DNA of 62,404 nucleotides, taken from the IMG/VR virus record IMGVR_UViG_3300021963_000133, positions 1-62,404 of that record; one strand, 5' to 3'. This DNA is from a virus (Duplodnaviria > Caudoviricetes). Below the pieces are notes generated by a model. It was not told the DNA's origin and made no database searches. It worked only from the letters and a program-made list of their open reading frames with translations. The first letter of the stretch is position 1. Every line of letters starts with the position of its first letter. Positions 968 to 52,941 of the stretch are shown here, piece after piece. The position numbers were made by a program, and so were the translations under genes.

Positions 968-1015
968 GATTGTAAAATTTTATTTGACTCTCGTCAACTA
1001 GATGTTATATTTATT

Positions 1016-14465: not shown

Positions 14466-14481
14466 ATTGGCGAAGTTTTTG

Positions 14482-14554
14482 TGATCCGAGAAGGACTCGA
14501 ACCTTCAACCTACACATTAGAAGTGTGTTGCTCTATCCATTGAGCTATCGAACC
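14482..14554 (-). tRNA. tRNA-Arg(TCT)
   Basis: Cloverleaf; anticodon loop CUUCUAA. Confidence 0.9.
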
Positions 14555-14561
14555 AAGGTTG

Positions 14562-14634
14562 AGCCTCCTGTCGGAATCGAACCAACGACCTACTGATTAC
14601 AAATCAGTTGCTCTACCAGCTGAGCTAAGGAGGC
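14562..14634 (-). tRNA. tRNA-Thr(TGT)
   Basis: Cloverleaf; loop UUUGUAA. Confidence 0.92.
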
Positions 14635-14639
14635 AATTA

Positions 14640-14700
14640 ACGGGATGTACTATCTGGGTTTGAGTAAAAGTCAAAAGATAATGTTTGCTGCAGACATCCC
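14640..14700 (-). ncRNA. Y-RNA-like family copy 1 (with Lys-UUU anticodon-like hairpin)
   Basis: GGGAUGU-CUGCAGCAAA...UUUGA-CUUUUAC-UCAAA...ACAUCCC-GU. Confidence 0.7.
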
Positions 14701-14708
14701 AATAAGGT

Positions 14709-14848
14709 ACAGGTTTCTGTTTTTGCGGACCAGCGTGTTTACCAATTTCACCACTCTCCAATGTTTCATAGTTAATTTTGTTGGAGAGGTAGGACTCGAA
14801 CCTACAGTATACCGGTTTTCTGTGCTTAAAATTTGCTGTAAGAAACCT
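14709..14848 (-). ncRNA. Y-RNA-like family copy 2 with circularly permuted tRNA domain (YrlA-like)
   Basis: AGGUUUC-UUACAGCAAA...T arm, looped acceptor stem CUCUCCA/UGGAGAG, D arm...GAAACCU-GU. Confidence 0.78.
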
Positions 14849-14856
14849 AATGTGTT

Positions 14857-15033
14857 TTAAGCTTTGTTAGCCTCAGAAACTGATGTTCTTACTGCTTGTG
14901 CAATTGCTTTAATTTCTTGCATTTGTTTTCTAACTCTTGTACCAGCAGACTTGTTACCTTTTTCAGTAAATTTAGTCGCTTCTTCACGAGCGATGTTCAA
15001 TGCTTCTTGGATTTGTTCTAATTGTTCTAACAT
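14857..15033 (-). CDS. Histone H1-like (Hc1-family) small basic protein, 58 aa
   Basis: Manual translation MLEQLEQIQEALNIAREEATKFTEKGNKSAGTRVRKQMQEIK...; GNKxAGTRxRK motif. Confidence 0.8.
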   Translation of the reverse strand: MLEQLEQIQEALNIAREEATKFTEKGNKSAGTRVRKQMQEIKAIAQAVRTSVSEANKA

Positions 15034-15057
15034 TTTGTTAATTTTATATTGTTACTA

Positions 15058-15086
15058 TTTATATCGGCGTTAACCGTTTTGTTTCA
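15058..15086 (-). promoter_or_regulatory. Class-II promoter TGAAAC-N17-TATA
   Basis: tgaaac + 17 nt + tataaa upstream of Hc1/Y-like RNA/tRNA unit. Confidence 0.6.
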
Positions 15087-15089
15087 TAA

Positions 15090-15325
15090 AAAGCTACACT
15101 TTCGTAGTAGCCACGTGAATTTTGTTAACACTAGTTAAGAAAATTCAACCGCGATTACGCGGCTAGTGCAAAGTTGTCGTTTGCTTGTACTAATCATCTC
15201 TCCCTACCACATTCTATACTGTCAAAAGCCTGGTCATCCCCATGATTTTATTTTAATTTGGTGGAGATGGCGGGAATCGAACCCGCGTCCAATACAGTGT
15301 CAATAAGTGTCATCAACAACTAGTT
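15090..15325 (-). ncRNA. ssrA: Two-piece (circularly permuted) tmRNA; tag ANDNFALAA
   Basis: Acceptor piece GACGCGGGUUCGAUUCCCGCCAUCUCCACCA ends at 15259 and precedes the 5' piece GGGGAUGAC..GAC starting at 15241; tag frame 15184-15155. Confidence 0.88.
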
Positions 15326-15326
15326 G

Positions 15327-15400
15327 TAGACAATGATGGACTCGAACCATCGACCTCCTCGGTATCAGCGAGGCGCTCTAACCAACTGAGCTAAATGTCT
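15327..15400 (-). tRNA. tRNA-Ile(GAT)
   Basis: Cloverleaf; loop CUGAUAC. Confidence 0.88.
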
Positions 15401-15423
15401 ATATAATATGTTATTATATATCC

Positions 15424-15876
15424 TTAGTAATGTAAATCGATGAACAATAAATCTGTTTCATCGTCGTAGAAAACTGGGCAGAATGCCGGATGATACTGTT
15501 CAAGTAAATCAGTATCTGATAAATCAACTAATAGTTTAGCTGGATCCTCTATTTTTGGATAATTGGGTTCTTTACCTAAAACTCGACGATCAATTTCTTC
15601 ATTAAGATTAATATTGATTTGTTCTGCTTCGTAGTATGCATATCCTTTCTTTAAGAAAACACCCCAACCTTTAGATTTAGTTCCAGAAGGATATACATTT
15701 CCTTCAGAATCTGTCATACCAGAAATATCAACACCTTCAAAATACTTATCTTCAACTCTTTGAATCATGACTTTTGCAGTCATCGGTATATCTCGTTCTT
15801 TAATAAAGTCTAACAGGTCTTGAACCGTCATCCCCACTTCAGAGTCTATAAAATCAGATTTTTTAAGGATTTCCAT
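15424..15876 (-). CDS. Hypothetical protein
   Basis: ORF track. Confidence 0.7.
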   Translation of the reverse strand: MEILKKSDFIDSEVGMTVQDLLDFIKERDIPMTAKVMIQRVEDKYFEGVDISGMTDSEGNVYPSGTKSKGWGVFLKKGYAYYEAEQININLNEEIDRRVLGKEPNYPKIEDPAKLLVDLSDTDLLEQYHPAFCPVFYDDETDLLFIDLHY

Positions 15877-15894
15877 CTTATAATATTATTATTG

Positions 15895-15975
15895 TACCTC
15901 AGGAGAGACTCGAACTCTCACTGCTTTCGCGCTAGATCCTAAGTCTAGTGTGTCTACCAATTCCACCACCAAGGC
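15895..15975 (-). tRNA. tRNA-Leu(TAG)
   Basis: Class II cloverleaf; loop CUUAGGA. Confidence 0.88.
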
Positions 15976-15981
15976 AAGTTA

Positions 15982-16039
15982 ACGGGATGCTGTTTTGCTT
16001 TTTCCAATAAAAGTTTTGTATATTTGCTGGAAGCATCCC
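15982..16039 (-). ncRNA. Y-RNA-like family copy 3
   Basis: GGGAUGC-UUCCAGCAAA...GCAUCCC-GU. Confidence 0.7.
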
Positions 16040-16060
16040 AAAGTTTTAACTTAACTCCAA

Positions 16061-16249
16061 TTAGTTAATTGGAGTATGGTAAGGTAGTGAACTATCTGCT
16101 TTTGCAGAGTCAACTACTGTAGAGTCAGTTGTTACCAATGTAGAATCTACTGCTGTAGAGTCAGTTGTTGTTGATGTCGTTGCACCGTTTCCACAAGATG
16201 CTACGAAGATTGCGATTGTAGCCAATGCTAAAATTGTTGCTTTTTTCAT
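16061..16249 (-). CDS. Small Thr/Asp/Ser-rich lipoprotein
   Basis: Signal peptide with VASC lipobox; DST repeats. Confidence 0.75.
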   Translation of the reverse strand: MKKATILALATIAIFVASCGNGATTSTTTDSTAVDSTLVTTDSTVVDSAKADSSLPYHTPIN

Positions 16250-16283
16250 AATTGTTTGTTGTTTTTTATTGTAATAGTGGTTA

Positions 16284-16312
16284 TTTATATCTCACTTTTT
16301 AATTTTGTTTCA
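16284..16312 (-). promoter_or_regulatory. Class-II promoter TGAAAC-N17-TATA
   Basis: Exact 17-nt spacer. Confidence 0.6.
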
Positions 16313-16666
16313 AATCTTTTTAAATTCCATGAATTCAGTTGCTTTAATAGCATCTTTATAAATCTTCAATGCTGATTTAAAAGTCATCTTACGTCCACTT
16401 GGAGTTCTTAACTCTGTAAAACCACTAAACTCATATTGGTCGTTTGGACCCCATAAAAGGTAATAAGTTTCATTAATTTTACCGGTTTGACTGTATTTTG
16501 TTCTAAATACAGTTTTATCAGTTCTCCAATCAGTATGTGCTGTATTTAAACTTGTTGCTAATGCTACATGTTTTGGTAAGTCTGTACCCCAATTAGGCTC
16601 AGTTCTTTGAAATTCTATTAGAATATTCATTTGGCCAATTGTGTTATGTTCAATTTTTCTGCTCAT
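16310..16666 (-). CDS. Hypothetical protein
   Basis: ORF track. Confidence 0.7.
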   Translation of the reverse strand: MSRKIEHNTIGQMNILIEFQRTEPNWGTDLPKHVALATSLNTAHTDWRTDKTVFRTKYSQTGKINETYYLLWGPNDQYEFSGFTELRTPSGRKMTFKSALKIYKDAIKATEFMEFKKI

Positions 16667-16677
16667 ATATTTTTATT

Positions 16678-16893
16678 TTACCATGAATCAACATCTGTTA
16701 AATCAAGTTCAGTTTTTGTTTTGTGACTATAAACTTCAATTCCATTTCCAATTCCAGTTGGAGTTATCTTCCATGTGAAAGTTCCATACTCTCCATAAAG
16801 AGCTTTAATATGTCCTTTCCATTCATCATACATTGCCTGCTGTTTATCATTAAGCACTTCATGAATCTCGTAATTTTTCTTTTTATCTGCCAT
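16678..16893 (-). CDS. Hypothetical protein
   Basis: ORF track; start adjusted to MADKKK. Confidence 0.7.
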   Translation of the reverse strand: MADKKKNYEIHEVLNDKQQAMYDEWKGHIKALYGEYGTFTWKITPTGIGNGIEVYSHKTKTELDLTDVDSW

Positions 16894-17576
16894 TATTCCC
16901 AAATTTGATAAAACTTTCTAAATAATGCTACAACGTCCATTGCATCTTCAATTGCATTGTGTGTAACAATACCTTCAATTCCAGCACGTTCTTTACAAAG
17001 AGCTAAACCTGGTGCAGCATCATCATTTTTCCAATCAATGTATAAAACTGAAGGGTCCAATGTTCTACCACGAGCTTTAAGACATTGCTTCCATCTTGGT
17101 AAACGCTCTAAGAACTTATTATCAAAGTTTGCAAAGTTCTTACCTGCGGCATTGAAATAATAAGGTTTCATTTTTGAAGTTAGGGCTGGGTAAGATTTAC
17201 CATTTACAATTTCCATGTGTCCAGTTAAATCAAACTTACCATCTAAGGCTCCATTCTCCCATAAGAATTGAAAGATTCGTTTAGCAACATCTTCTTCATA
17301 CATGTATTCTCGACCAGTTCTAATCTCAATTTCCTTTCGTTCCTCATCGGTACGAGCCATCTTGTATTCTAAGATGTCGGCAATCAATTGTCGATTCATG
17401 TTAATTGCAAAGATTTCGCCTTCAATTCTCTCTCTAACAATTGCAATTTCAAGTTGTGGTAATTCCTTTAAAGGTTTTACATCTACCGTATCTTCAACCA
17501 CTAATCCAATTGATAGAGTTTGAGTGTTTTCATTGTCAATTCCAGTAGTTTCAATATCAATACTTACGTATTTCAT
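16893..17576 (-). CDS. DEDDh 3'-5' exonuclease
   Basis: SIDIETTG, NFANFD, HNAIEDA. Confidence 0.85.
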   Translation of the reverse strand: MKYVSIDIETTGIDNENTQTLSIGLVVEDTVDVKPLKELPQLEIAIVRERIEGEIFAINMNRQLIADILEYKMARTDEERKEIEIRTGREYMYEEDVAKRIFQFLWENGALDGKFDLTGHMEIVNGKSYPALTSKMKPYYFNAAGKNFANFDNKFLERLPRWKQCLKARGRTLDPSVLYIDWKNDDAAPGLALCKERAGIEGIVTHNAIEDAMDVVALFRKFYQIWE

Positions 17577-17581
17577 AGTTT

Positions 17582-18172
17582 CTATTTTAAAAATTCTAAT
17601 ACTTTCTCTTTAATTCCCGATTGTTTGATACCTTCCATTGCTCTTGGAGTCAAGACAAAGTTTTCTAATCCCCATTTACGTTCAATGTTATCATAGTTCT
17701 TAGCCATGTTCAGGTCATCAATTGCAACCCAATGAGTAACTTCTGGATGTTGCTGTAACCAATACAATATTTCAACATGTCTCTCTTGTTCTAACAACCA
17801 AGTTCGACTCCAATCGATATCCTCATCTTTAAGATGTGCTGCTCCACCTTCATTATATAAATCTTTACAAAATGATGTTGCATCAATTGGACGCTTAATG
17901 ATTCCTTGTGACTCATAGTAATCACCCAGTTCCTCAACAGTTGCCCATCTTTTCCAGTCTGAAGATACTACTATCTCCGCACCAGTTTCCTCAATGATTG
18001 AATTAAGTACTGCGACCGCCTTCTTATTAAAGTTATCAAAGCGATATTCGACATCTAATGCCATAACAGATTGGCTCATCTTACGACCAGCTTTTTGTTG
18101 TTTCTTGAATCGACCTCCCCATTCCGTAGAAAGGCAAATTACTCCATCATTATCTAAAAATATTACTTTCAT
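17582..18172 (-). CDS. HAD-family phosphatase (RNA-repair-associated type)
   Basis: FLDNDGV, VVSSDWK, VAIDD. Confidence 0.82.
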   Translation of the reverse strand: MKVIFLDNDGVICLSTEWGGRFKKQQKAGRKMSQSVMALDVEYRFDNFNKKAVAVLNSIIEETGAEIVVSSDWKRWATVEELGDYYESQGIIKRPIDATSFCKDLYNEGGAAHLKDEDIDWSRTWLLEQERHVEILYWLQQHPEVTHWVAIDDLNMAKNYDNIERKWGLENFVLTPRAMEGIKQSGIKEKVLEFLK

Positions 18173-18204
18173 ACAGTTTATACGCTATTTGTTATTTTTG
18201 TTTC

Positions 18205-18221
18205 CTATGTAAATATAAACA
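18205..18221 (-). promoter_or_regulatory. Class-I promoter repeat
   Basis: ctatgtaaatataaaca on + strand. Confidence 0.7.
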
Positions 18222-18234
18222 ATTCTTTTCACAT

Positions 18235-18270
18235 AAAAAAATCCTGATCAATTTATTTTCGATCAGGATT
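18235..18270 (-). terminator. Intrinsic terminator
   Basis: AATCCTGATC inverted repeat plus U-tract. Confidence 0.65.
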
Positions 18271-18292
18271 CAAATATTTCTAAAAAGAACTT

Positions 18293-19327
18293 TTAGTGTT
18301 CTTCTTTTCCGTGTTCTTCTTCTGATCCAGCTGGTTTAATTAGGGCTTCTACAATAGCAATAATTGCCAGATATTTAGCAGTTGCTGTAATAAAATGAAC
18401 TACAGTACCGATTCCTGGGATTAGGTGTAGAATTTGGTGTTCAGCTGCATGTTTTACATTATACTCAACAACAACTCCAATGATTGTAGCTAAGGCTGCA
18501 AATTCAAATGGTCCTGGTGCTCCAGCCAATTCTGTTGCATAGTATGAAAACTTATTTAAAGCTCCACCTGCAATTTTTTCAGCGCCTTGTTTTACTTTAT
18601 CTAACAGACTGAATGGAGGAATATGATGCATTTTATGTGCAATTGCAGAAACAAATGGAATACCAGATCCACTCTCTTCTATCATATCAGTAAAATCAAT
18701 GTCTCCATTTATTACGGCTTCATTAATCATTAATGTGATTGCTAATTCAAAAGATTCATTAGTATCTTCTTTGGCTGCTATTTCTCCAGCTTTGGCTGCT
18801 TGAGAAACAAATCCTGAAAGAGCCCAACCTTTCATAGCAGATGCGCATGATTTTAATTGTTTAACCTCTTCAATTAATGAATTCTTAGTCTTTTCTCCAG
18901 ATTTGTCTAATTTCTCTTTAATAACTTTAGACGCTTTTGCAGCTTCAGCATTATAGTAACCCATTGCACCTTTCCATGCTGATTCTAAAGCTTCTTTAAT
19001 TTTAGAAGCAATTAGTTTAACAATACTAATGATATTACCGCCTAATTTAACAATTTTTTCTTGTGTGTCTGTTAATGCTTTCTTACCTTTGGTTTTAGCA
19101 ATCTCAATAGCATTATCAAATTTAGCTTTCATTTTATTAACTAAACTTTCTTCATTGATTGCTTCGGTAAATGAACTATCAAAAATACCAGATTCGATGA
19201 TAACCTTAGTTTCATCTAGGTACGATTTCATGTCTTCAAATTGAGCTACTATATTAAATATAAGTTCTCTTCTTGATTCAACTAAATTTTTATTAGTGTG
19301 AAATTGGCTATAAGATAATAGATTCAC
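18293..19327 (-). CDS. Hypothetical protein (possible internal virion protein; hydrophobic C-terminus)
   Basis: MNLLSYSQF start; several INE/LVE motifs. Confidence 0.7.
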   Translation of the reverse strand: MNLLSYSQFHTNKNLVESRRELIFNIVAQFEDMKSYLDETKVIIESGIFDSSFTEAINEESLVNKMKAKFDNAIEIAKTKGKKALTDTQEKIVKLGGNIISIVKLIASKIKEALESAWKGAMGYYNAEAAKASKVIKEKLDKSGEKTKNSLIEEVKQLKSCASAMKGWALSGFVSQAAKAGEIAAKEDTNESFELAITLMINEAVINGDIDFTDMIEESGSGIPFVSAIAHKMHHIPPFSLLDKVKQGAEKIAGGALNKFSYYATELAGAPGPFEFAALATIIGVVVEYNVKHAAEHQILHLIPGIGTVVHFITATAKYLAIIAIVEALIKPAGSEEEHGKEEH

Positions 19328-19363
19328 GAGTATTTACTTTTATTTCTTTGTCTATATATTCAA

Positions 19364-19442
19364 TAAAAAAGGGTAGGATCAGACGCGTTCTGCCTACCGA
19401 GACCTCGTCGTTAACTTTCGCCAGAGCGTACCGAGACACTTT
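19364..19442 (-). other. Structured element ending in an intrinsic terminator
   Basis: GGUAGG..CCUACC-UUUUU hairpin; duplicated GUCUCGGUA. Confidence 0.5.
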
Positions 19443-19444
19443 GT

Positions 19445-19522
19445 TGCGATTAGAGGAATCGAACCTCCCAGGGGTATATCTACCAAATCAACTCATGAGA
19501 TTGACCTTACACCGATATCGCA
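19445..19522 (-). ncRNA. Atypical tRNA-like RNA (CAU loop, aberrant D arm)
   Basis: GCGAU/AUCGC acceptor, GAGGUUCGAUUCCUC T arm, UCAAU-CUCAUGA-GUUGA arm. Confidence 0.55.
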
Positions 19523-19527
19523 ATATA

Positions 19528-19649
19528 ACAGGATGGGTTTTTGTACGTGCTCTACCAACTGAGCTATTGATTCCGAAGAATCAAGCCGGATTCGAACCGA
19601 CGACCACGAGGTTAACAGCCTAGATTTTACTTTTTGCAGTAACCATCCT
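19528..19649 (-). ncRNA. Y-RNA-like family copy 4 with permuted tRNA domain and Asn-GUU anticodon hairpin
   Basis: AGGAUGG-UUACUGCAAA..AGG-CUGUUAA-CCU..T arm, UUGAUUC-UUCG-GAAUCAA, D arm..CCAUCCU-GU. Confidence 0.8.
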
Positions 19650-19660
19650 AAAGTTTTTAG

Positions 19661-20596
19661 TTATTTCAATTGATAACAATCATTAAATAACTTTTGATAT
19701 TTTTGTTCAATTCCAGGAAATTGTTGTAAATCTACAATAATTTCATTAATTGCATGTCTTCTAAAGAAATCTTCGTTGTATTTATATTTTCTACCCCAAA
19801 TATGAGTAATCAAATTTTCTATTCTAAGACTTTCATCAGATGAATTTAAAAATGGTTTCCATTTTTGATTCCATACTATATTCTGCTTAAATGTATAAAC
19901 TAAAAATGCATTTGGTTTAATTGAACTATAAGAAATTCCTAGTTTGTTTGCAACGGTAGGTAATAACCTCTGTTCGACAAAAACTGTACTTTTTTTATTT
20001 TTTACATTTTCAGGATCTTTGTCTAAAACAATAACTTTAGTAACTTCATTGTACCAAGTATCTATTAACTCTTTAGTTCTATTTTTAAAATACATGATAG
20101 CACAATTCATAGGCCAACAACTCCAATCAAATTTTTCAACGTCATCTTCATGCATCCAATTTATCGGATCATGATAATTAGTATATCCTAAATTTTCATC
20201 AAAATGTTCTTCATGAAACAAACTAAAATCAGAATCAGTTTTAATAAGACCGGATTCTTTAATCCATAAATCAACATCAATAATACAAAATTCAGTATTA
20301 CTTTTTGCTAATTCTTTAGCAACATAGATTTTAGAAAAACTCCAATATCTATTAATTTTATCCTTATAAGGTATTGAATCTAATAAATCAGTGTCTATAG
20401 AATCATATTCTTTTTCAATACCATATTTTTTAAGAATATTTAAGTGCTCTGTATTTGCATACAATTTAATTGGACCATAATTCTTTTTCCAGAATAGAAT
20501 AGAAGCTAATTGAGCTAAAACTTCAATTGCTTCATATTTGTTATTATTTTTAAAAAAATCATGTTCAAATCTGTAATAAGTATGATAACCATTCAT
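19661..20596 (-). CDS. Hypothetical protein, possible GT-A-type glycosyltransferase
   Basis: WSFSKIY, IIDVDLW (DxD), NCAI, EQRLL, THIWG; very AT-rich. Confidence 0.5.
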   Translation of the reverse strand: MNGYHTYYRFEHDFFKNNNKYEAIEVLAQLASILFWKKNYGPIKLYANTEHLNILKKYGIEKEYDSIDTDLLDSIPYKDKINRYWSFSKIYVAKELAKSNTEFCIIDVDLWIKESGLIKTDSDFSLFHEEHFDENLGYTNYHDPINWMHEDDVEKFDWSCWPMNCAIMYFKNRTKELIDTWYNEVTKVIVLDKDPENVKNKKSTVFVEQRLLPTVANKLGISYSSIKPNAFLVYTFKQNIVWNQKWKPFLNSSDESLRIENLITHIWGRKYKYNEDFFRRHAINEIIVDLQQFPGIEQKYQKLFNDCYQLK

Positions 20597-20619
20597 AATT
20601 TACTTATTATGTTTATTTG

Positions 20620-20691
20620 CGGTCCCACGGGGAATCGAACCCCGAACTCAGCCGTGACAGGGCTGCATTATAGCCGTTTAACTATGAGACC
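20620..20691 (-). tRNA. tRNA-Asp(GTC)
   Basis: Loop CUGUCAC. Confidence 0.9.
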
Positions 20692-20697
20692 AAAGTA

Positions 20698-20833
20698 AAG
20701 ATAATGATGGAGTACCCGTCTCGCTCCAATCTTAATTGCTTCCTGAGTTTTAATGAGGCCTCAGCAAAGGGTGGTGAACTCTTGACCCAACCACGATTGT
20801 CGACATCGCTTTGGTTGGAGAGACCATTATCTT
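20698..20833 (-). ncRNA. Unknown structured RNA
   Basis: Terminal stem AAGAUAAUG/CAUUAUCUU; nested GUCUC-UCCAA/UUGGA-GAGAC. Confidence 0.55.
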
Positions 20834-20835
20834 AG

Positions 20836-20907
20836 TAGCCCGTACGAGAATCGAACTCGTATTTCACCCGTGAAAGGGGCGTGTCCTAACCGTTAGACGA
20901 ACGGGCC
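20836..20907 (-). tRNA. tRNA-Glu(TTC)
   Basis: Loop CUUUCAC. Confidence 0.9.
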
Positions 20908-21275
20908 AAAAATGGAAGGTCACCAACTGCACCTTCCGTGGTAGCTTTAGGAATCTTTAACAACTCCAAGGTTTCGAATTCTTTACATGTTGGTCTTGTT
21001 CTGAAAGACGTCAACTACTGTTTCATAGTCACCGCACGTCGCTACTTGTTACCTTAACGCGAATTGGTTTTAAGCATATTGATAAATTGACCAAATTTCT
21101 TACCAGAGCAGGATAAATGAAGCTATCACGTTGTCTTCTAAATACCGATTGAGATTGCGGCCTCTAAGGTTCCTGATGCGCCATTGTCTTTCGTTAACTT
21201 TCATTGAACTATGGGTTATTGGGTTTTGGCAGTGTCCCATTCAACATACTCATTAAGTACTTTTTCATTATCAAT
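20908..21275 (-). ncRNA. Unknown large (~370 nt) putative structured RNA
   Basis: No ORF in track, GC-richer, GNRA-type hairpins, 3' GGAAGGU/ACCUUCC hairpin plus U-tract. Confidence 0.5.
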
Positions 21276-21277
21276 AG

Positions 21278-21351
21278 TGGAGCCTAAGGGAGTCGAACCC
21301 TTGACCTCTTGCGTGCAAGGCAAGCGCTCTAGCCAACTGAGCTAAGGCCCC
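21278..21351 (-). tRNA. tRNA-Ala(TGC)
   Basis: Loop CUUGCAC; G3:U70. Confidence 0.92.
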
Positions 21352-21359
21352 AATAATAT

Positions 21360-21434
21360 TGGTTGCGGGGGCAGGATTCGAACCTGCGACCTCGAGCTTA
21401 TGAGGCTCGCGAGCTACCACTGCTCTACCCCGCT
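21360..21434 (-). tRNA. tRNA-Met(CAT), initiator-like
   Basis: Loop CUCAUAA; 1:72 mismatch; A11:U24; encoded CCA. Confidence 0.85.
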
Positions 21435-21439
21435 ATTTG

Positions 21440-21510
21440 TTGTCCCTGAAGGATTCGAACCTCCACCGTGTGGACCAAAACCACATGTCCTGCCATTAGA
21501 CCAAAGGACA
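21440..21510 (-). tRNA. tRNA-Gln(TTG)
   Basis: Loop UUUUGGU. Confidence 0.9.
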
Positions 21511-21522
21511 ATAATATCACTA

Positions 21523-21536
21523 ATATGTCAAAGAAC
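21523..21536 (-). promoter_or_regulatory. boxA-like antitermination element GTTCTTTGACATAT
   Basis: Exact repeat also at 24132 and 24557. Confidence 0.6.
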
Positions 21537-21552
21537 CTTTTGTCAGAGTGAC

Positions 21553-21822
21553 TTACTTAACTTCAGTCACTCTGTACGGTTTGAATATGGTTAACTTAGA
21601 CCCATCTGAATTGTAGTACCAGATTGAATCTTCAGTCTGACCGGCAATAGTATCAGTGTAGGCTATTGCCGGTCTTAGTTCTTGTGTAACGTTAAGCTCA
21701 TTCCAATCAACTTGTCTTTCGACCATAACTGGAACTTGACCTTCGATTTTGTACTTATAATCTTTACCTTTACAAGAAAGGAATAGAATTGATAGTACTG
21801 AAACGTAAAATACCTTTTTCAT
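21553..21822 (-). CDS. Lipoprotein
   Basis: True start MKKVFY (the ORF-track extension overlaps tRNA-Leu); LSC lipobox. Confidence 0.75.
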   Translation of the reverse strand: MKKVFYVSVLSILFLSCKGKDYKYKIEGQVPVMVERQVDWNELNVTQELRPAIAYTDTIAGQTEDSIWYYNSDGSKLTIFKPYRVTEVK

Positions 21823-21833
21823 ATCTTCTTTTT

Positions 21834-21921
21834 TGGTACTCGGAGCGGGAATTGAACCCGCACGGACACAAGGTCCACAAGATTTTAAGTCTGGCGTGTC
21901 TACCGATTCCACCACCCGAGC
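21834..21921 (-). tRNA. tRNA-Leu(TAA)
   Basis: Class II; loop CUUAAAA; CCA. Confidence 0.9.
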
Positions 21922-21961
21922 GTTTTTAATTACTTACAATATCTTTAAGAACGTTACTATC

Positions 21962-21990
21962 ATTATATCCGATTAAACTGGATTGTTTCA
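21962..21990 (-). promoter_or_regulatory. Class-II promoter TGAAAC-N17-TATAAT, followed by degenerate boxA (21939-21952)
   Basis: Exact 17-nt spacer. Confidence 0.55.
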
Positions 21991-22017
21991 TAACATTTTT
22001 AAAATATTTCAACCACT

Positions 22018-22127
22018 GCTGATAGAATTGGATTCGAACCAATACGAAGGGATTAGGCTTTCGCTTTATTTCTTGTCTTCAACCCCGAGACAGGAGGTCG
22101 TGTCTGCCAATTTCACCATCTACCAGC
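22018..22127 (-). ncRNA. Atypical tRNA: class-II body, GUC anticodon loop, oversized variable arm
   Basis: UGGUAGA/UCUAUCA acceptor, Leu-type D loop, ACCUC-CUGUCUC-GGGGU, ~38-nt variable region. Confidence 0.65.
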
Positions 22128-22140
22128 AACAATTTTAATG

Positions 22141-22225
22141 CGGAAGCTACAGGATTCGAACCTGTGGGACCGTGAAGTCCACCACTTTAGCAAAGTGGCA
22201 CGATAGACCGCTCTGACAAACTTCC
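22141..22225 (-). tRNA. tRNA-Ser(GCT)
   Basis: Class II; loop UUGCUAA. Confidence 0.9.
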
Positions 22226-22226
22226 T

Positions 22227-22303
22227 TGGGGTAATTAATGGGATTCGAACCCATACTAGCAGAACCACAATCTGACGTGCTAACCATTAACACTATAACT
22301 ACC
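22227..22303 (-). tRNA. tRNA-His(GTG)
   Basis: Loop UUGUGGU; G-1/C73; CCA. Confidence 0.9.
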
Positions 22304-22307
22304 ATAA

Positions 22308-22396
22308 AGCCGATCCCGTAGATCGGCAGCTCGACTTTCGGCATCGAGTTTGCAAGAATAAATCTCTGGCCAGTTCCTCCACACTTTGTGTGGCGA
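22308..22396 (-). ncRNA. Unknown three-hairpin element
   Basis: CCACAC/GUGUGG, CUCGA/UCGAG, GCCGAUC/GAUCGGC. Confidence 0.45.
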
Positions 22397-22397
22397 G

Positions 22398-22472
22398 TGC
22401 ACCTTGAAGGATTCGAACCTCCGACCCTCTCGGTGTAAACGAGATGCTCTAAACCAACTGAGCTAAAGGTGC
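22398..22472 (-). tRNA. tRNA-Val(TAC)
   Basis: Loop UUUACAC. Confidence 0.9.
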
Positions 22473-22538
22473 ATATAATAAACCTCTTTTTGTTACAATA
22501 AACCTTATTAGTTTATTGATACAATTTTTAGTTTATTG

Positions 22539-22612
22539 TGACCCCGGATGGACTCGAACCATCGACCCTCGCATTAAAAGTGCGATGCTCTAACCAACTG
22601 AGCTACGAAGTC
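22539..22612 (-). tRNA. tRNA-Lys(TTT)
   Basis: Loop CUUUUAA. Confidence 0.9.
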
Positions 22613-22677
22613 TTGCCTTTTTTAGGGTTTTTAATAGAACATTAGAACCCAAGGACAGTACGACCTATAAACTAATT

Positions 22678-22803
22678 GGTGACTGTGAGGGGAATCGAAC
22701 CTCGATGACTACTTGATCGATACTTCATCATCTTTAAATTAACCTAGCCTAAAAGGCACCCAATTTACCGGTGGGCAGTGCTTCCATACACTTACACAAT
22801 CAT
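22678..22803 (-). ncRNA. Oversized tRNA-like RNA
   Basis: UGAUUGU/ACAGUCA-CCA acceptor and GGUUCGAUUCC T loop; several extra hairpins inside. Confidence 0.55.
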
Positions 22804-22806
22804 TTG

Positions 22807-22880
22807 TTGCGAAAACAGGATTTGAACCTGTGTCTATGCCTTATGAGAGCACCGTAAGAAACCAACTCTACCATTTCGCA
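22807..22880 (-). tRNA. tRNA-Met(CAT), elongator-like
   Basis: Loop CUCAUAA; paired 1:72. Confidence 0.8.
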
Positions 22881-22885
22881 ATTTG

Positions 22886-22957
22886 TAGTCAATAAAGGAC
22901 TCGAACCCTTATTTCCCGATCCGTAGTCGGGTGTTCTATCCGTTGAACTAATCGACT
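22886..22957 (-). tRNA. tRNA-Arg(ACG)
   Basis: Loop CUACGGA. Confidence 0.88.
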
Positions 22958-22962
22958 AGAAG

Positions 22963-23036
22963 TGGACCATTCAGGGCTCGAACCTGAGACCTTCTCGTTA
23001 TGAGCGAGCTGCTCTAACCGACTGAGCTAAAGGTCC
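22963..23036 (-). tRNA. tRNA-Ile2(CAT), lysidine type (probable)
   Basis: Loop CUCAUAA on GGACCUU-UAGCUCAGUCGGUUAGAGC Ile-type body. Confidence 0.78.
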
Positions 23037-23041
23037 AGTTG

Positions 23042-23112
23042 CACGATTGGAGAGATTCGAACTCCCATCAACGGTTTTGGAGACCGGCATGCTACCATTG
23101 CACCACAAACGT
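23042..23112 (-). tRNA. tRNA-Trp(CCA)
   Basis: Loop CUCCAAA. Confidence 0.88.
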
Positions 23113-23122
23113 GTATAAAAAG

Positions 23123-23262
23123 AAAGAAAACAGAAGATGGTTCAGTGGACATCTGTTTTTACGATTAGCATTACTTAGGGTGAATACCTGCAAACTCCGG
23201 TTGTATCAGTCAGTATTCACTCTCGAACTAAAGATACAACCATTCCCTAATCAACTTTCCTT
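23123..23262 (-). ncRNA. Unknown pseudoknotted RNA
   Basis: GGUUGUAUC/GAUACAACC crossing GUGAAUAC/GUAUUCAC; outer GAUUAG/CUAAUC. Confidence 0.55.
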
Positions 23263-23263
23263 G

Positions 23264-23344
23264 TGGGAGCGGAGGGATTCGAACCCCCAATGTCGTAAGA
23301 CCACGGATTTACAGTCCGCTAAGCAACCGTTGCTCAACACTCCC
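23264..23344 (-). tRNA. tRNA-Tyr(GTA)
   Basis: Class II; loop CUGUAAA. Confidence 0.9.
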
Positions 23345-23413
23345 ATTTCCAATTTTGATGGGCTCATCTGAAAGTTTTTAAACTAACCAGCACTTGAGAT
23401 TGGTAACTCCTTG

Positions 23414-23485
23414 CTGGGTATCTAGGATTCGAACCTAGGACCGCTCGATTAACAGTCGAGAGCTCTACCGCTGAGCTAATACCCA
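23414..23485 (-). tRNA. tRNA-Asn(GTT)
   Basis: Loop CUGUUAA. Confidence 0.9.
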
Positions 23486-23487
23486 AT

Positions 23488-23688
23488 GTCTCCCTTCGTT
23501 GGTACTTGTCGTTTCTCGAGTCGACACTTTCCCCGTGACTGTTTTATTATAGTGTGCTTCCCTACTGGGATTTGAAGCCAACACTTGTTGGAGTTTCACT
23601 TTACCACAACCGATAGCCATATAGGACTTATCACTTTACTCCATGACAGCTTTTAACTGAGAGATCACGGTATTGTGAGTGAAACATT
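23488..23688 (-). ncRNA. Unknown putative structured RNA (~200 nt)
   Basis: Non-coding, GC-richer; UCUCUC/GGGAGA end pairing; repeated GUCAYGGRG(U)AAAGUG. Confidence 0.4.
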
Positions 23689-23813
23689 TGTGATTCTTAT
23701 AGGAGTCGAACCTACCATTCCATTCCGCCGCTAAACAGAATCGCAAACCATTATGCGGGAGTTTAAGTGTTTACATTATTTAGCGCTAATGTAATCCTTT
23801 ATCTCAAGAACCA
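23689..23813 (-). ncRNA. Oversized tRNA-like RNA
   Basis: GGUUCUU/AAGAAUC acceptor, GUAGG-UUCGACU-CCUAU T arm, expanded interior. Confidence 0.55.
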
Positions 23814-23816
23814 TTT

Positions 23817-23915
23817 GTAACCATGATTGGATTCGAACCAATTTCAACTTTGCCATAAAGAGTCTATTTCAACTCAACCTTGGGGAGGTGTCGCCAACCA
23901 ATGGCCTCATGATTA
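23817..23915 (-). ncRNA. Oversized tRNA-like RNA
   Basis: UAAUCAU/AUGGUUA acceptor, AUUGG-UUCGAAU-CCAAU T arm, several small interior hairpins. Confidence 0.55.
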
Positions 23916-23918
23916 TTT

Positions 23919-23977
23919 GTGGAGAGCAGAGATTCGAACTCTGTGCGTTGGATTCCTGCTTTAACCAGACCTCTCCT
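23919..23977 (-). ncRNA. Truncated tRNA-like RNA (acceptor and T arm)
   Basis: GGAGAG/CUCUCC-A with CAGAG-UUCGAAU-CUCUG; only ~27 nt between them. Confidence 0.5.
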
Positions 23978-24046
23978 GGACCTGCAGATCCATTATAATG
24001 AGAGCATCACACCTCAAAGGCTGTTCATAAACTAGCTTAATTAGAG

Positions 24047-24118
24047 AGCAGATAGCCGGAATCGAACCGGCGTCTCCAGATTGGAAGTCTGGAGTAATAA
24101 CCCCTATACGATATCTGC
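24047..24118 (-). tRNA. tRNA-Gly(TCC)
   Basis: Loop CUUCCAA; U73. Confidence 0.9.
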
Positions 24119-24131
24119 ATTACTATTTCCA

Positions 24132-24145
24132 ATATGTCAAAGAAC
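24132..24145 (-). promoter_or_regulatory. boxA-like element
   Basis: GTTCTTTGACATAT between class-I promoter and tRNA-Gly. Confidence 0.62.
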
Positions 24146-24160
24146 AATTGTTTTAATTTG

Positions 24161-24177
24161 ATATGTAAATATAAACA
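24161..24177 (-). promoter_or_regulatory. Class-I promoter repeat (internal to tRNA array)
   Basis: atatgtaaatataaaca. Confidence 0.75.
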
Positions 24178-24238
24178 ATGTTTTTCAATCGGTAAAACTT
24201 TTTATCAATTATTTTCAAAAAAGTTATTAACATTTTTG

Positions 24239-24313
24239 TCGGGATACCAGGACTCGAACCTGGATGATGTCCTGCTCCCAAAGCAGGCGACTTAGCCATT
24301 AGTCCACATCCCG
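24239..24313 (-). tRNA. tRNA-Pro(TGG)
   Basis: Loop UUUGGGA. Confidence 0.9.
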
Positions 24314-24320
24314 TAAGTTG

Positions 24321-24393
24321 TGGATCGGGACGGATTCGAACCGCCGACACCCGCATCTTCAGTGCGGTGCTCTACCAACTGAGCTACCGATCC
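24321..24393 (-). tRNA. tRNA-Phe(GAA)
   Basis: Loop CUGAAGA. Confidence 0.9.
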
Positions 24394-24395
24394 AT

Positions 24396-24474
24396 TTGAA
24401 CTTATTCTCTTACCCCTTTATTTCGTTCCATCCTGCTTATCTTTAAATACGAGTTTCTCAAGGGTACAGGATGT
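24396..24474 (-). ncRNA. Pseudoknot element between tRNA-Cys and tRNA-Phe
   Basis: CAUCCUG/CAGGAUG crossing UACCCUU/AGGGGUA. Confidence 0.5.
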
Positions 24475-24476
24475 TG

Positions 24477-24546
24477 AGTATAAGGTCGGAATCGAACCAA
24501 CTCCGTGAGATTTGCAGTCCCACTGGCCTCCAAGACCAACTTATAC
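24477..24546 (-). tRNA. tRNA-Cys(GCA)
   Basis: Loop CUGCAAA; U73; short D arm. Confidence 0.8.
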
Positions 24547-24556
24547 ATTTTCGCCA

Positions 24557-24570
24557 ATATGTCAAAGAAC
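24557..24570 (-). promoter_or_regulatory. boxA-like element
   Basis: GTTCTTTGACATAT immediately after the attenuator terminator. Confidence 0.62.
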
Positions 24571-24584
24571 TTTCCATTATAACT

Positions 24585-24615
24585 AAAAAAGCCCGACTGT
24601 TTAAGGTCGGGCTCT
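24585..24615 (-). terminator. Attenuator terminator
   Basis: AGAGCCCGAC-CUUAAACA-GUCGGGC-UUUUUU; 5' arm complementary to 24663-24671. Confidence 0.8.
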
Positions 24616-24643
24616 TGTTTATATATGGAGTTAATATGTTTAC

Positions 24644-24748
24644 TTAACTTATAATTAACTTTAGAGCCCGAGATCGATCACATGCGCCATACGGTTTAAC
24701 ACTAAACCATAAATTCATATTTTCGATATGTTGCCCTATTCGTTGCAT
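24644..24748 (-). CDS. Putative leader peptide MQRIGQHIENMNLWFSVKPYGACDRSRALKLIIS (pan-amino-acid attenuator)
   Basis: 34 aa, A-rich start context, 19 different amino acids in the first 24 codons; contains antiterminator UCGGGCUCU. Confidence 0.75.
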   Translation of the reverse strand: MQRIGQHIENMNLWFSVKPYGACDRSRALKLIIS

Positions 24749-24776
24749 TGTTTTGTTATTTTGTAATATTATAATC

Positions 24777-24805
24777 TATATATCTTTAATTTTGAGAAAG
24801 TTTCA
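24777..24805 (-). promoter_or_regulatory. Class-II promoter upstream of the leader peptide
   Basis: TGAAAC-N17-TATATA. Confidence 0.6.
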
Positions 24806-24810
24806 CATTT

Positions 24811-25029
24811 TTATGAATTTTTATCAAATTTTTCATATTCAATGTTTCCTACTTCCTGGTATGCTTGGTATAATAGTGTTACCGCTTCATCGACTTTAGT
24901 ACAAATATCCTTCTCTAGTTTACAAACTGGATGCTGTAATATATGGTCATCAATTGTACTCATAACAACATGTAATCTATCTAGCATTTCATGATAATGA
25001 AACTTGTCTAATTTGTCTTTTGCACTCAT
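24811..25029 (-). CDS. Hypothetical protein
   Basis: ORF track. Confidence 0.7.
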   Translation of the reverse strand: MSAKDKLDKFHYHEMLDRLHVVMSTIDDHILQHPVCKLEKDICTKVDEAVTLLYQAYQEVGNIEYEKFDKNS

Positions 25030-25724
25030 ATGAATGAATCTAAGGTTACGATTTTATTGTCTATTAATTTCTTACAAATCTCTCTTGAAATATCCTGATC
25101 TGATTGGTAATGAATTCCGCCTTGAACTCTTGTATGCGCTACTTTATCGCAGTATGCTGCAATTTCTTCAGCTTGTTCTGGATATTTTTGACCAAGTATT
25201 GCAGCAATCATATATGAATCTAAAGCATGTCCACTTGGATATGATGCAGTTCCAGCACTTGTTGCAACTGGCTGGTACATTGGAATATTTAATGGTCTAG
25301 CAAGTTGGAAAGGTCTTGCACGATTATAATGATTCTTAAGTTTATAAAGAAGTGGATCAGTTAGTTCTGCAATATCTTTTATTAGATCTTCTTCACCATT
25401 TATACCTAATTCTTTAAGGAAATCATTAATCACTACATAAATGTCTTTTTCGACATCTTCAATAAATTTAATGTCCTCTTCAGTTAGACCTTTCTGTTCT
25501 TCTAACATACTCTCTAATTCAGCTGATGTTTCAGGACTTGAATTCTTTGGAAAAGGTTTATTAAAAAGCTCTTCTAAGATTCCAGCCTCACGAGTCATTT
25601 TCATGATGATAGGTTCTTCATCAACATCATAACTTTTACGATGTTCTAAAGCCTCATTCCCATAACCAATCATATCGATCTGGTTAAAATCAGCAAATTC
25701 ATTGTATGTTTTAATTTTTGCCAT
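25026..25724 (-). CDS. PAP2-superfamily acid phosphatase; KTYNEF N-terminus
   Basis: KNHYNRARP, SYPSGH, RVQGGIHYQSD. Confidence 0.85.
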   Translation of the reverse strand: MAKIKTYNEFADFNQIDMIGYGNEALEHRKSYDVDEEPIIMKMTREAGILEELFNKPFPKNSSPETSAELESMLEEQKGLTEEDIKFIEDVEKDIYVVINDFLKELGINGEEDLIKDIAELTDPLLYKLKNHYNRARPFQLARPLNIPMYQPVATSAGTASYPSGHALDSYMIAAILGQKYPEQAEEIAAYCDKVAHTRVQGGIHYQSDQDISREICKKLIDNKIVTLDSFI

Positions 25725-26223
25725 TTTTAATATTCTTAGTTATTTTCTTAAGTCCTTCATTCATGATTCTGTTTCTTTCAGCAGCAGATTCATCAATTTG
25801 AATAATTGTTCGGGGTTCTTGCATTTCCATTCTAAGAACCCTTTCATCACCTTCAAGACCCTCATCTTTTATATACTGTTTTTCAAGATTTGTTTTTTTC
25901 GGAACAGTACAATTTGCTGCTCGATTTTGTAAATCTTGAATCATTTGTAAAATTTCTTGTTCTCTCTTAAATACTCGATCAGTACAACCCATTTCAGTTT
26001 CCTGCACTCTAAGATTTAATTTTGTTAGCTCTTGTCTAAGTTGACTAATCTCAGTAGTTTTTTCAGTAATTTGATGTTTGAGTTCAGTATCATCGTATGT
26101 TAATGAAGCAATAATTTTTGGTCCAACTGTAATAAAGGTGATTGATACTAAAAGAATACACAAAGCCAGAATTCTCTGACCCTGTGTGAACTTTGATAAT
26201 ATTTGAGATATGTACTTAAACAT
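25711..26223 (-). CDS. Membrane-anchored coiled-coil protein (possible spanin-like)
   Basis: N-terminal TM plus coiled coil next to a putative cell-wall enzyme. Confidence 0.55.
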   Translation of the reverse strand: MFKYISQILSKFTQGQRILALCILLVSITFITVGPKIIASLTYDDTELKHQITEKTTEISQLRQELTKLNLRVQETEMGCTDRVFKREQEILQMIQDLQNRAANCTVPKKTNLEKQYIKDEGLEGDERVLRMEMQEPRTIIQIDESAAERNRIMNEGLKKITKNIKNGKN

Positions 26224-26813
26224 TAAAAAATATCGTTTGTTTCAATCAACGTGTATGTGAATGATTTACCGTGTATTTTAGCTGCTTTGTTTACTATTAC
26301 CATAAATGCATCAAAATCAGCAATACGTTTAAATACTTGACATCCTTCTGACCAGTTTTCTACGTAAGTAGAATCGACACCAGCATGGTGAATATTAATA
26401 CCAAATACTCCTTCTTGGATTTTAGACTCATCATAAACCATATCTTTATTAAAGTCACGGTAAACTTTAACCGGCTTTGCTTGTTTAAGAGCTTTGTATT
26501 TACCTTGGTGTAAACCAATAGTATGTGAACCTCTATATTGACCTTCAACTAGTCTAGCTACTCCGGCGACATTATGGAATTCTTTAACTCCTTTTGTACC
26601 TGGATCGGTAGTTGCATCCCATTGGTGGAATTTCCATACTCCATTTTCTTTATAAGAAACGGTAATTAAATCATCGAATAGGTTGGTTACTTTATTTCCA
26701 GTATCTGAATTTCTAACTCCAACAATATTCAAGTCAAAATCCTTTGCACCTTCAAACCAAACATATCCTTTTGCTTTTACCGCTTTTTCGATAGGTTCTC
26801 TTTTTGTTTGCAT
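26223..26813 (-). CDS. Putative peptidoglycan-active enzyme (L,D-transpeptidase-like catalytic motif)
   Basis: GINIH...WSEGCQV His/Cys motif. Confidence 0.55.
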   Translation of the reverse strand: MQTKREPIEKAVKAKGYVWFEGAKDFDLNIVGVRNSDTGNKVTNLFDDLITVSYKENGVWKFHQWDATTDPGTKGVKEFHNVAGVARLVEGQYRGSHTIGLHQGKYKALKQAKPVKVYRDFNKDMVYDESKIQEGVFGINIHHAGVDSTYVENWSEGCQVFKRIADFDAFMVIVNKAAKIHGKSFTYTLIETNDIF

Positions 26814-26851
26814 AGTTTTATTTTATTTTTATTAAGTTATTTATTCAATTT

Positions 26852-27259
26852 TTAGATTGTTGAATAATTAAGCATATTGTTAGATCCAGAATCTACAATT
26901 TTAAGTCCATCATTTCGATCAATGAACAGCCATTCACAGTCTGTTAATTCAAATTGATTTAAATGCTCAATAACTTCTGATACTTCAAAACATGAACATG
27001 AGTAAATATCAAATTGGAACATTGCGGGTTCTTGTTTATCCCAGACGTGGATTGCCGCATGTGAAGTTGCTAATGTTACGGTTCCGGTAATACCTTCATT
27101 TCCAGGTTCATCAACATAAACTGATGTTGGACCGGCAACTACTACCATTCTTACTTTATTAACTAATTCTTTAAACCATTGGTTTAAAACTTCTTCTGAC
27201 TTTGGTGGGTTTTTTACGTGACCTTTTACTAAAAGGTGTAAATGATTTGGAGTAAACAT
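26852..27259 (-). CDS. speD: S-adenosylmethionine decarboxylase proenzyme-like
   Basis: LATSHAAIHVW, FDIYSC. Confidence 0.75.
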   Translation of the reverse strand: MFTPNHLHLLVKGHVKNPPKSEEVLNQWFKELVNKVRMVVVAGPTSVYVDEPGNEGITGTVTLATSHAAIHVWDKQEPAMFQFDIYSCSCFEVSEVIEHLNQFELTDCEWLFIDRNDGLKIVDSGSNNMLNYSTI

Positions 27260-52863: not shown

Positions 52864-52887
52864 ATATTGTATCTTTATTAATTTGTT

Positions 52888-52904
52888 ATATGTAAATATA
52901 AACA
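52888..52904 (-). promoter_or_regulatory. Class-I promoter repeat
   Basis: atatgtaaatataaaca. Confidence 0.75.
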
Positions 52905-52941
52905 ATGTTTTTCAATCGGAGAAACATTTAGTGAGTTATTT

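Follow-up and report, generated by a model that had tools for sequence, protein, structure and literature searches.

A probable leader-peptide attenuator at the head of a phage tRNA array and its recurrence in phages of Bacteroidota

The leader region and tRNA array of the window

The DNA analyzed here, referred to as the window, is the viral contig IMGVR_UViG_3300021963_000133 of IMG/VR over its full length of 62,404 nucleotides; it is A+T-rich (34% G+C), has a completeness estimate of 29%, and carries nearly all of its genes on the minus strand. The element in question is a short leader region at the head of a large tRNA array. An earlier reading made from the letters of the window only (the sequence-only reading) had described there, in order on the minus strand, a short open reading frame (ORF), a terminator, a boxA-like site, and the tRNA array, all of which were found at the locus. 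It had also placed a promoter ahead of the ORF, and this claim stood in part: a −10-like TATAAT is present (24768–24773, minus strand) and is conserved in G001, but the −35 element in the window is poor, and a consensus promoter scan had no entry for the site. G001 is the only close relative identified by protein-guided and degenerate-pattern searches of viral and metagenome contigs. In G001, TTGAAA lies 18 nt upstream of TATAAT, and the same TTGAAA-18-TATAAT arrangement occurs in a more distant locus, L089.

The leader ORF, recognized by ORF calling and by reading of the sequence, occupies positions 24644–24748 (minus strand) and consists of 34 codons and a stop (MQRIGQHIENMNLWFSVKPYGACDRSRALKLIIS). 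Codons 1–24 (24677–24748, minus strand) make up a putative sensor block, in which the previously reported count of 19 different amino acids, all but Thr, proved to be correct; Thr is absent from the entire peptide. Within the ORF, codons 4–6 contain TAGGGC (region 1; 24733–24738, minus strand), for which the minimum-free-energy fold predicts GCTCTA at 24662–24667 as the partner, and codons 26–29 contain the predicted 5′ strand of an antiterminator, TCGGGCTCT (region 2; 24663–24671, minus strand). As had been claimed, region 2 is an exact 9-nt complement of AGAGCCCGA at 24615–24607. The intrinsic terminator with its T run, located by a terminator scan (regions 3 and 4; 24581–24616, minus strand), starts approximately 30 nt past the leader stop codon, and its stem (24616–24587, minus strand) has 11 pairs, six of them G–C, before the T run. 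The rrn-type boxA motif GTTCTTTGACATATTGGC, found as a motif match at 24553–24570 (minus strand), is situated 6 nt before tRNA-Cys, which is the first of the 21 genes of the tRNA array (20619–24546, minus strand; tRNA and Rfam scans). The order in the array is Cys, Phe, Pro, Gly, Asn, Tyr, Trp, Met(CAT), Arg, Met(CAT), Lys, Val, His, Ser, Leu, Gln, Met(CAT), Ala, Glu, and Asp.

In terms of amino-acid diversity, the leader was the only one of the 653 window ORFs of ≥24 amino acids (all six frames) to reach 19 different residues in its first 24, and none of the 11757 24-residue windows of long genes did so (maximum 18). The simulated probability of at least 19 different residues was 1.5e-4 with the composition of the phage proteins and 1.0e-4 with that of random DNA. 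As a source of this diversity, chance at about 1e-4 per ORF permits hits in very large scans, and one 19-of-24 ORF among the 11340 small ORFs of the fetched loci sits without tRNAs nearby (L080). Chance is rejected for the window locus only because of its conservation, its position, and the matching rule between leaders and tRNA blocks described below.

The contiguous block of the window comprises 18 named specificities and three CAT tRNAs. Leader codons 2–24, upstream of region 2, cover all 18 of the named specificities, and Thr is absent from both leader and block. The sequence-only reading had gone further and named Thr as the only specificity missing from the array. There is indeed no tRNA-Thr among the 21 genes, the gene being located outside the array at 14561–14634 in a distal cluster, but tRNA-Ile(GAT) is also outside the array, and the claim stands only on condition that Ile2 is among the three CAT tRNAs. 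The CAT tRNA at 22962–23036 resembles Ile2 and is likely to be it; another, with A1 opposite A72, has the look of an initiator. The proposed agreement between the leader codons and the isoacceptors of the array turned out to be weak: Gly-TCC does not decode GGC, the tRNA for ATC is the distal Ile-GAT, and most of the codons are those common in the phage. Several rare G+C-rich leader codons fall in paired segments.

Leader content and tRNA blocks in other modules

The arrangement found in the window recurs in uncultured Bacteroidota phages as a module consisting of a short ORF, an intrinsic terminator 10–50 nt later, boxA, and tRNA genes. The 17-nt motif was present in at least 116 viral contigs, and a tRNA on the same strand lay within 40 nt at 38 of 117 hits among the matches listed. 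There were 133 motif instances with enough upstream sequence (window and viral loci), 55 of which had an intrinsic terminator within 330 nt upstream. At 50 of these 55 terminators, an ATG-initiated ORF of 18–50 codons ended 10–50 nt before the stem, giving 44 distinct peptides; of 2200 anchors drawn at random on these strands, 270 (12%) had such an ORF. When 40 fresh loci were scanned independently of the motif, the ORF was found at 23 of the 24 terminators that precede a tRNA. An ORF with a terminator was found at none of the 123 motif instances in bacterial genomes, and blastn and tblastn searches of a collection of cultured phages yielded no module, only two remote PAP2 hits and one 53-nt tRNA-like hit. 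Leaders unrelated to that of the window sit in the identical ORF–terminator–boxA–tRNA architecture in other viral contigs. In seven modules, the T run abuts boxA, with 6–9 nt from the end of the stem to the motif and no room for a promoter, and in L089, tRNA-Phe begins 14 nt after the T run. The tRNAs of these modules would be reachable only through the terminator.

Some modules showed particular features of their own. In the largest leader family (family A; L042, L054, L060, and others), the first gene after the terminator is tRNA-Thr(TGT), and boxA follows it; hand inspection of several of these tRNA-Thr genes suggests an anticodon stem that leaves a loop longer than 7 nt. L008 and L071 carry CTA-anticodon tRNAs, which read TAG and are labeled Pyl by ARAGORN, inside their regulated blocks, a hint of stop-codon recoding in some of the phages.

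To what extent a leader covers the specificities of its own block was determined with one representative of each of 20 leader families that had at least four tRNAs in the contiguous block. Mean coverage was 0.938, versus 0.829 ± 0.023 when the leaders were permuted among the modules, and 0 of 20000 permutations reached the observed value, although the permutation p-values are optimistic in that several of the families share block types and are not fully independent. Coverage was complete in 13 of the 20 families, versus 1.8 ± 1.1 for random peptides of the pooled leader composition (maximum 7 in 5000 trials). The other two forward frames gave complete coverage in 1/20 and 0/20 families, and the three reverse frames in 0, 1, and 0. 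Exchanging the two leaders within a record lowered coverage from 1.00/1.00 to 0.46/0.57 in L075 and from 1.00/0.83 to 0.50/0.67 in L083. The result held under five other block definitions and without the window and G001 (12/19 complete, p 1e-4). For example, one family without Asp, Glu, and Gly precedes the block Thr, Gln, Pro, Lys, Val, Tyr, Asn, Ile, His, Arg, and these genomes carry a second family, in which Leu, Ile, Gly, Asp, Glu, Ala, Thr, Arg, and Met are abundant and the block that follows is Leu, Met, Ile, Gly, Glu, Asp, Ala, Arg, Thr. The matching rule was formed on the first data set and was replicated with the 40 fresh loci mentioned above, which had been obtained with a variant motif and in which modules were detected independently of the motif. 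All five of the new unrelated leader families fully covered their blocks (joint chance approximately 3e-5, as the product of the per-leader values), and three of the five leaders were strongly enriched in block residues, such as MKKLLDTLHILLAADLLWADEDKLYSVG before Asp, Glu, Leu, Leu, Leu, Ala, Ala, Trp.

As a rule, then, the amino acids served by the tRNA genes behind a terminator are present in the peptide of its leader. Because this matching is seen in other phages, the absence of Thr from both leader and array in the window is a matter of rule, not coincidence, and the 19-of-24 leader without Thr is the extreme case of the rule and not a separate oddity. The designation "pan-amino-acid" does not carry over to the module in general. 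Other leaders hold 11–19 different residues in their first 24 and reflect tRNA blocks of smaller size, and with this range and no significant scaling with block size, such diversity was rejected as a family-wide property. In L050, a leader of 31 residues (MQLHGCTYWILSNVEKNFPQADSITHIPGRS; 912–1007, minus strand) includes every one of the 20 amino acids. Directly upstream of it are a tmRNA of standard type and tRNA-Gly (1220–1600, minus strand), and its downstream block is incomplete because the locus ends after six tRNAs.

Probable translation, predicted RNA pairing, and the proposed switch

The ORF is kept in G001. Residues 1–25 of G001, whose neighboring PAP2-family gene shares 76% protein identity with that of the window, are identical to those of the window, with three synonymous and no nonsynonymous changes. 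By the Nei–Gojobori method, codons 1–25 have pN 0 and pS 0.22 between the two, and two upstream genes have pN 0.08–0.14 and pS 0.45–0.57. After codon 25, the peptides diverge and the stop shifts, while CGGGCTCT is kept. A variant in the RNA-library run X14 (freshwater) has synonymous changes at codons 10, 16, and 25, and nonsynonymous changes only after codon 25. In the two largest leader families, all five gaps inside the ORFs are 3 nt long, and 6 of 29 gaps outside the ORFs are multiples of 3; start and stop codons align in every member. Within the leader families, the peptide sequence drifts and is poorly conserved, while frame, start, and stop are kept, which is what would be expected of a leader that must be read, not of a folded product. 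The sequence upstream of the leader is A-rich and has no Shine–Dalgarno site, like the other gene starts of this phage. The conserved frame and the synonymous-only changes argue that the short ORF is probably translated.

An assembled 442-nt contig of run X14 (depth 36.5) lies on 24309–24749 and spans the leader, terminator, boxA, tRNA-Cys, and tRNA-Phe. It ends 1 nt before the ATG, depth is 0 at 24780–24847, and DNA contigs of two other runs continue upstream. These limits hint at a transcription start between TATAAT and the ATG, and the span of the contig hints at read-through of the terminator. The assembled contigs of a second RNA run (X6) did not cover the leader, and no inference was drawn from them.

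The pairing between the ORF and the terminator also had counterparts elsewhere. The best duplex between the ORF and the terminator 5′ arm has a predicted energy of −18.1 kcal/mol in the window and −14.9 kcal/mol in G001, each matched by 1 of 2000 dinucleotide shuffles, and the minimum-free-energy fold of the whole leader is well below that of shuffles in the window (z = −4.65; z −4.93 for a second fold). A homologue without the ORF or the pairing had been named as evidence that would speak against attenuation; G001 keeps the ORF, the terminator, and the antiterminator pairing, and a compensatory change was found in its terminator stem, from CCC/GGG to CTC/GAG. Both the window and G001 folds contain a long predicted hairpin within the ORF, in which TAGGGC (codons 4–6) pairs with GCTCTA (codons 28–29). 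This hairpin would sequester region 2 when no ribosome is present. In folds with a ribosome masked at codons 16–20, the antiterminator was predicted, and with the ribosome at codon 22 or later, the terminator was predicted; the antiterminator also formed in folds with the ribosome placed at codons 10–20. Among the 44 distinct modules, 23 had a significant duplex between ORF and arm (p≤0.05 versus shuffles), and in 22 of these 23, the pairing segment was located −32 to +11 nt relative to the stop codon, within reach of the footprint of a ribosome that terminates there. A consensus fold of family A contained no more than a 3-bp GGG:CCC contact, with no covariation, and an antiterminator was rejected for this family.

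On this comparative evidence (conserved anatomy, frame, pairing, and leader–tRNA matching), the leader-peptide attenuator proposed in the sequence-only reading is supported, and we consider it likely that the element is a ribosome-mediated transcription attenuator controlling a phage tRNA operon. Transcription would start just upstream of the ATG, and a ribosome would read the 34-codon leader while RNA polymerase proceeds to the terminator. With fast decoding of codons 1–24, the ribosome would reach codons 26–34 and cover region 2 (24663–24671), so that the terminator hairpin would form and transcription would halt before the tRNA genes. A delay at any of the approximately 19 kinds of codon would leave region 2 free, the ribosome having also opened the region 1:2 hairpin; region 2 would then pair with the terminator 5′ arm, and polymerase would read through, acquire an rrn-type antitermination complex at boxA, and transcribe the array. 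Because the leader holds a codon for each amino acid with a downstream tRNA, the circuit would be a negative feedback on tRNA supply, in which a shortage of any served tRNA switches the array on and accumulated phage tRNA switches it off. We infer the direction of the switch, its kinetics, and its natural trigger; the trigger could be a host tRNA pool that fits the phage codons poorly, or the cleavage of tRNAs by host defense. With less assurance, we lean toward the view that the modules constitute a "test-strip" class of attenuators in Bacteroidota phages, in which each block has a leader with the codons that it serves, so that the phage would gauge in real time how well its codons can be decoded in the cell and would make tRNAs on demand, also when nucleases of host defense cut tRNAs.

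Several observations weigh against this reading. Each amino acid has a single leader codon, whereas in classical attenuators the regulatory codon occurs in runs. In the window leader, 17 nt separate the end of region 2 from the stop, and a ribosome at the stop would barely cover region 2; masking would therefore have to occur during the reading of codons 27–33. The window and G001 do not differ in the bases of the region 1:2 pairing, which therefore offers no covariation, and 21 of the 44 modules have no significant duplex, including 9 of the 10 peptides of the largest family. In the distant homologue L081/L089, the antiterminator is not significant (z −0.5) and coverage is 0.83. Across the family representatives, the match at the level of codon classes is modest (Arg, p 0.045; Leu and Ser not significant), and leader diversity is not significantly related to block size (rho 0.33, p 0.13). 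The three codon positions share the variable columns evenly, with no third-position excess in families A and B, and the window leader has one close relative only in the collections searched. The X14 contig comes from one study and is an assembly, which can prove neither a single transcript nor a start site. There are also possible ways around the switch. The internal promoters that the sequence-only reading had noted in the array are listed by the promoter scan as promoter-like sites at 24196–24168 and 21991–21962 and could bypass the terminator, TAAACA-16-TATAAT at 24603–24576 overlaps the terminator as a possible bypass promoter, and G001 has approximately 70 extra promoter-like bases between terminator and boxA.

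Among the other explanations, the one that survives best retains the attenuator and changes its signal to amino-acid starvation or general translation stress, with the tRNA genes belonging to a stress regulon. The structure would respond to stalling whatever its cause, and attenuators that respond to general stalling have been described for antibiotic resistance genes. However, extra tRNA does not relieve amino-acid starvation, and within one phage, different blocks have different leaders, each matched to the tRNAs of its own block, a feature that a general stress sensor would not need; we regard this version as unlikely. A less likely explanation still is that the short ORFs are independent small genes, each with a promoter and terminator of its own, that the terminators are leaky or bypassed by downstream promoters, and that the matching arises from shared codon usage and module ancestry. 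The promoter-like sites that overlap or follow the terminators of the window and G001, the 21 modules without a significant antiterminator, and the block types shared among families, which make the associations not fully independent, are all compatible with it. Nevertheless, the peptide is poorly conserved within families that retain the frame, start, and stop, a promoter could not be accommodated before boxA and tRNA in seven modules, and the matching is frame-specific, differs between two modules of one genome, and was replicated in new families. An untranslated structured RNA that ends at the terminator (a small RNA or processing signal), with frame and diversity as by-products, could account for the stable folds, the rare G+C-rich codons in paired segments, and the lack of third-position excess in families A and B, but is highly improbable given the five of five ORF indels that are in frame, the exclusively synonymous substitutions in codons 1–25 of two variants, the mirroring of the tRNA set by the ORF frame alone, and the absence of any Rfam family besides tRNA and tmRNA at 13000–27000.

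Host, neighboring features, and relation to known systems

The attenuator would hand polymerase over to boxA, and this motif bears on the host. It occurs three times in the window, each time 6–9 nt before a tRNA that follows non-tRNA DNA (chance expectation 0.08). The second copy (24128–24145, minus strand) precedes tRNA-Gly, with a promoter-like stretch and no leader ORF upstream, and the third (21519–21536, minus strand) precedes tRNA-Gln, with an 88-amino-acid ORF upstream. The exact 17-mer was found in at least 120 genome stretches, nearly all from Bacteroidota. In the three loci checked (L125, L130, and L151), it lies between tRNA-Ala and the 23S gene, that is, in the 16S–23S spacer, and L151 has a related copy approximately 130 nt before the 16S gene. 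By position, this is the arrangement of rrn boxA sites, and by sequence, the phage motif is that of the Bacteroidota rrn spacer; it resembles the boxA consensus. The use of Nus factors (NusB/S10) at the phage boxA is putative, on grounds of position and sequence. A promoter function for the motif (a TTGACA −35 or an extended −10) was rejected, given its occurrence in rrn spacers and its unfit spacing to the tRNA. Because of the boxA identity and the lack of Shine–Dalgarno sites, the window phage fits a Bacteroidota host. An alphaproteobacterial host, suspected from a permuted tmRNA, was dropped in favor of Bacteroidota on account of the boxA identity and the gene starts without Shine–Dalgarno sites.

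This permuted (two-piece) tmRNA gene is unexpected in view of the other features of the phage that point to Bacteroidota. It lies at 15155–15308 (minus strand; Rfam RF04321, 73.1 bits), and ARAGORN places it at 15064–15351 with the tag ANDNFALAA. It belongs to the distal RNA cluster at 14481–15975 (minus strand), which comprises Leu(tag), Ile(gat), the permuted tmRNA, Thr(tgt), and Arg(tct); a leader module was looked for before this cluster, and none was found. Nearly identical promoter-like stretches (ATATTTACATATCAAATTAAAACAA) occur before the tRNA-Gly/boxA copy (24150–24175, minus strand) and before an ORF starting at 37502 (minus strand), and related boxes (TTTACATAT) are located 15–20 nt ahead of several other start codons. 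The 88-codon ORF within the tRNA array, directly before the third boxA copy (21554–21819, minus strand), has a lipoprotein-like start (MKKVFYVSVLSILFLSCKG...). Auxiliary genes encode a PAP2-family phosphatase just upstream of the leader (25026–25724, minus strand), a DUF2828/DUF7788 protein (40293–41732), and a protein of the nicotinate/nicotinamide phosphoribosyltransferase family (51379–52905).

Leader-peptide attenuators are known from amino-acid operons, such as trp, his, leu, and thr, and the multivalent ilvGMEDA leader of enterobacteria. The anatomy of the phage module is that of classical leader-peptide attenuation: a short ORF in the 5′ leader comes before an intrinsic terminator, the 5′ arm of which can instead enter an alternative pairing, the availability of this pairing is set by the position of the ribosome, and the regulatory codons relate to the product of the operon. 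The differences are that the output consists of tRNA genes and not of biosynthetic enzymes, that the leader has approximately one codon for each amino acid served (up to 19) and no runs of a single codon, and that an rrn-type boxA stands behind the terminator, in phages of Bacteroidota that lack Shine–Dalgarno sites. T-box riboswitches likewise couple tRNA status to terminator read-through ahead of translation-related genes; in contrast to the phage module, a T-box has no ORF and senses a single tRNA, by direct binding of its uncharged form. At the gathering threshold, the only Rfam matches in 13000–27000 were tRNA and tmRNA, and a T-box identity for the leader was rejected, no T-box being among these matches. 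In the leader ORFs of the erm and msr/vml types of antibiotic-resistance genes, a stalled ribosome refolds the RNA downstream, and genes that overcome the problem in translation are switched on, as would be the case here; those systems need drug-bound ribosomes and specific nascent peptides, whereas the phage leaders vary freely and their amino-acid set tracks the tRNAs. Rrn boxA/Nus-factor antitermination shares with the module a 17-nt motif, identical to that of the Bacteroidota rrn spacer, ahead of untranslated structured RNA genes. Unlike rrn boxA, the phage site stands 6–13 nt before a tRNA gene and after a regulated terminator, and the binding of NusB/S10 there is putative.

Why phages carry tRNA genes, and how these are regulated, is a long-standing question. 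Recent work ties phage tRNAs to escape from tRNA-cleaving defense (PMC10264068, PMC11464382, PMC11555353). No paper joining phage tRNA genes with leader-peptide attenuation was found in the literature searched, which covered what was accessible outside subscription journals. If the attenuator reading is true, tRNA expression on demand would have a direct and testable mechanism, classical attenuation would reach beyond the supply of amino acids to that of tRNAs, and the phages would be making regulated use of the antitermination site of host rrn operons. Should the test-strip view hold, tRNA genes would for the first time be known to come under feedback control by leader-peptide attenuation, and the 19-amino-acid leader of the window would be the pan-specific form of the class. 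For the annotation of these phages, a short ORF and a terminator before a tRNA would then mark the start of a regulated tRNA operon, the content of which the leader predicts.

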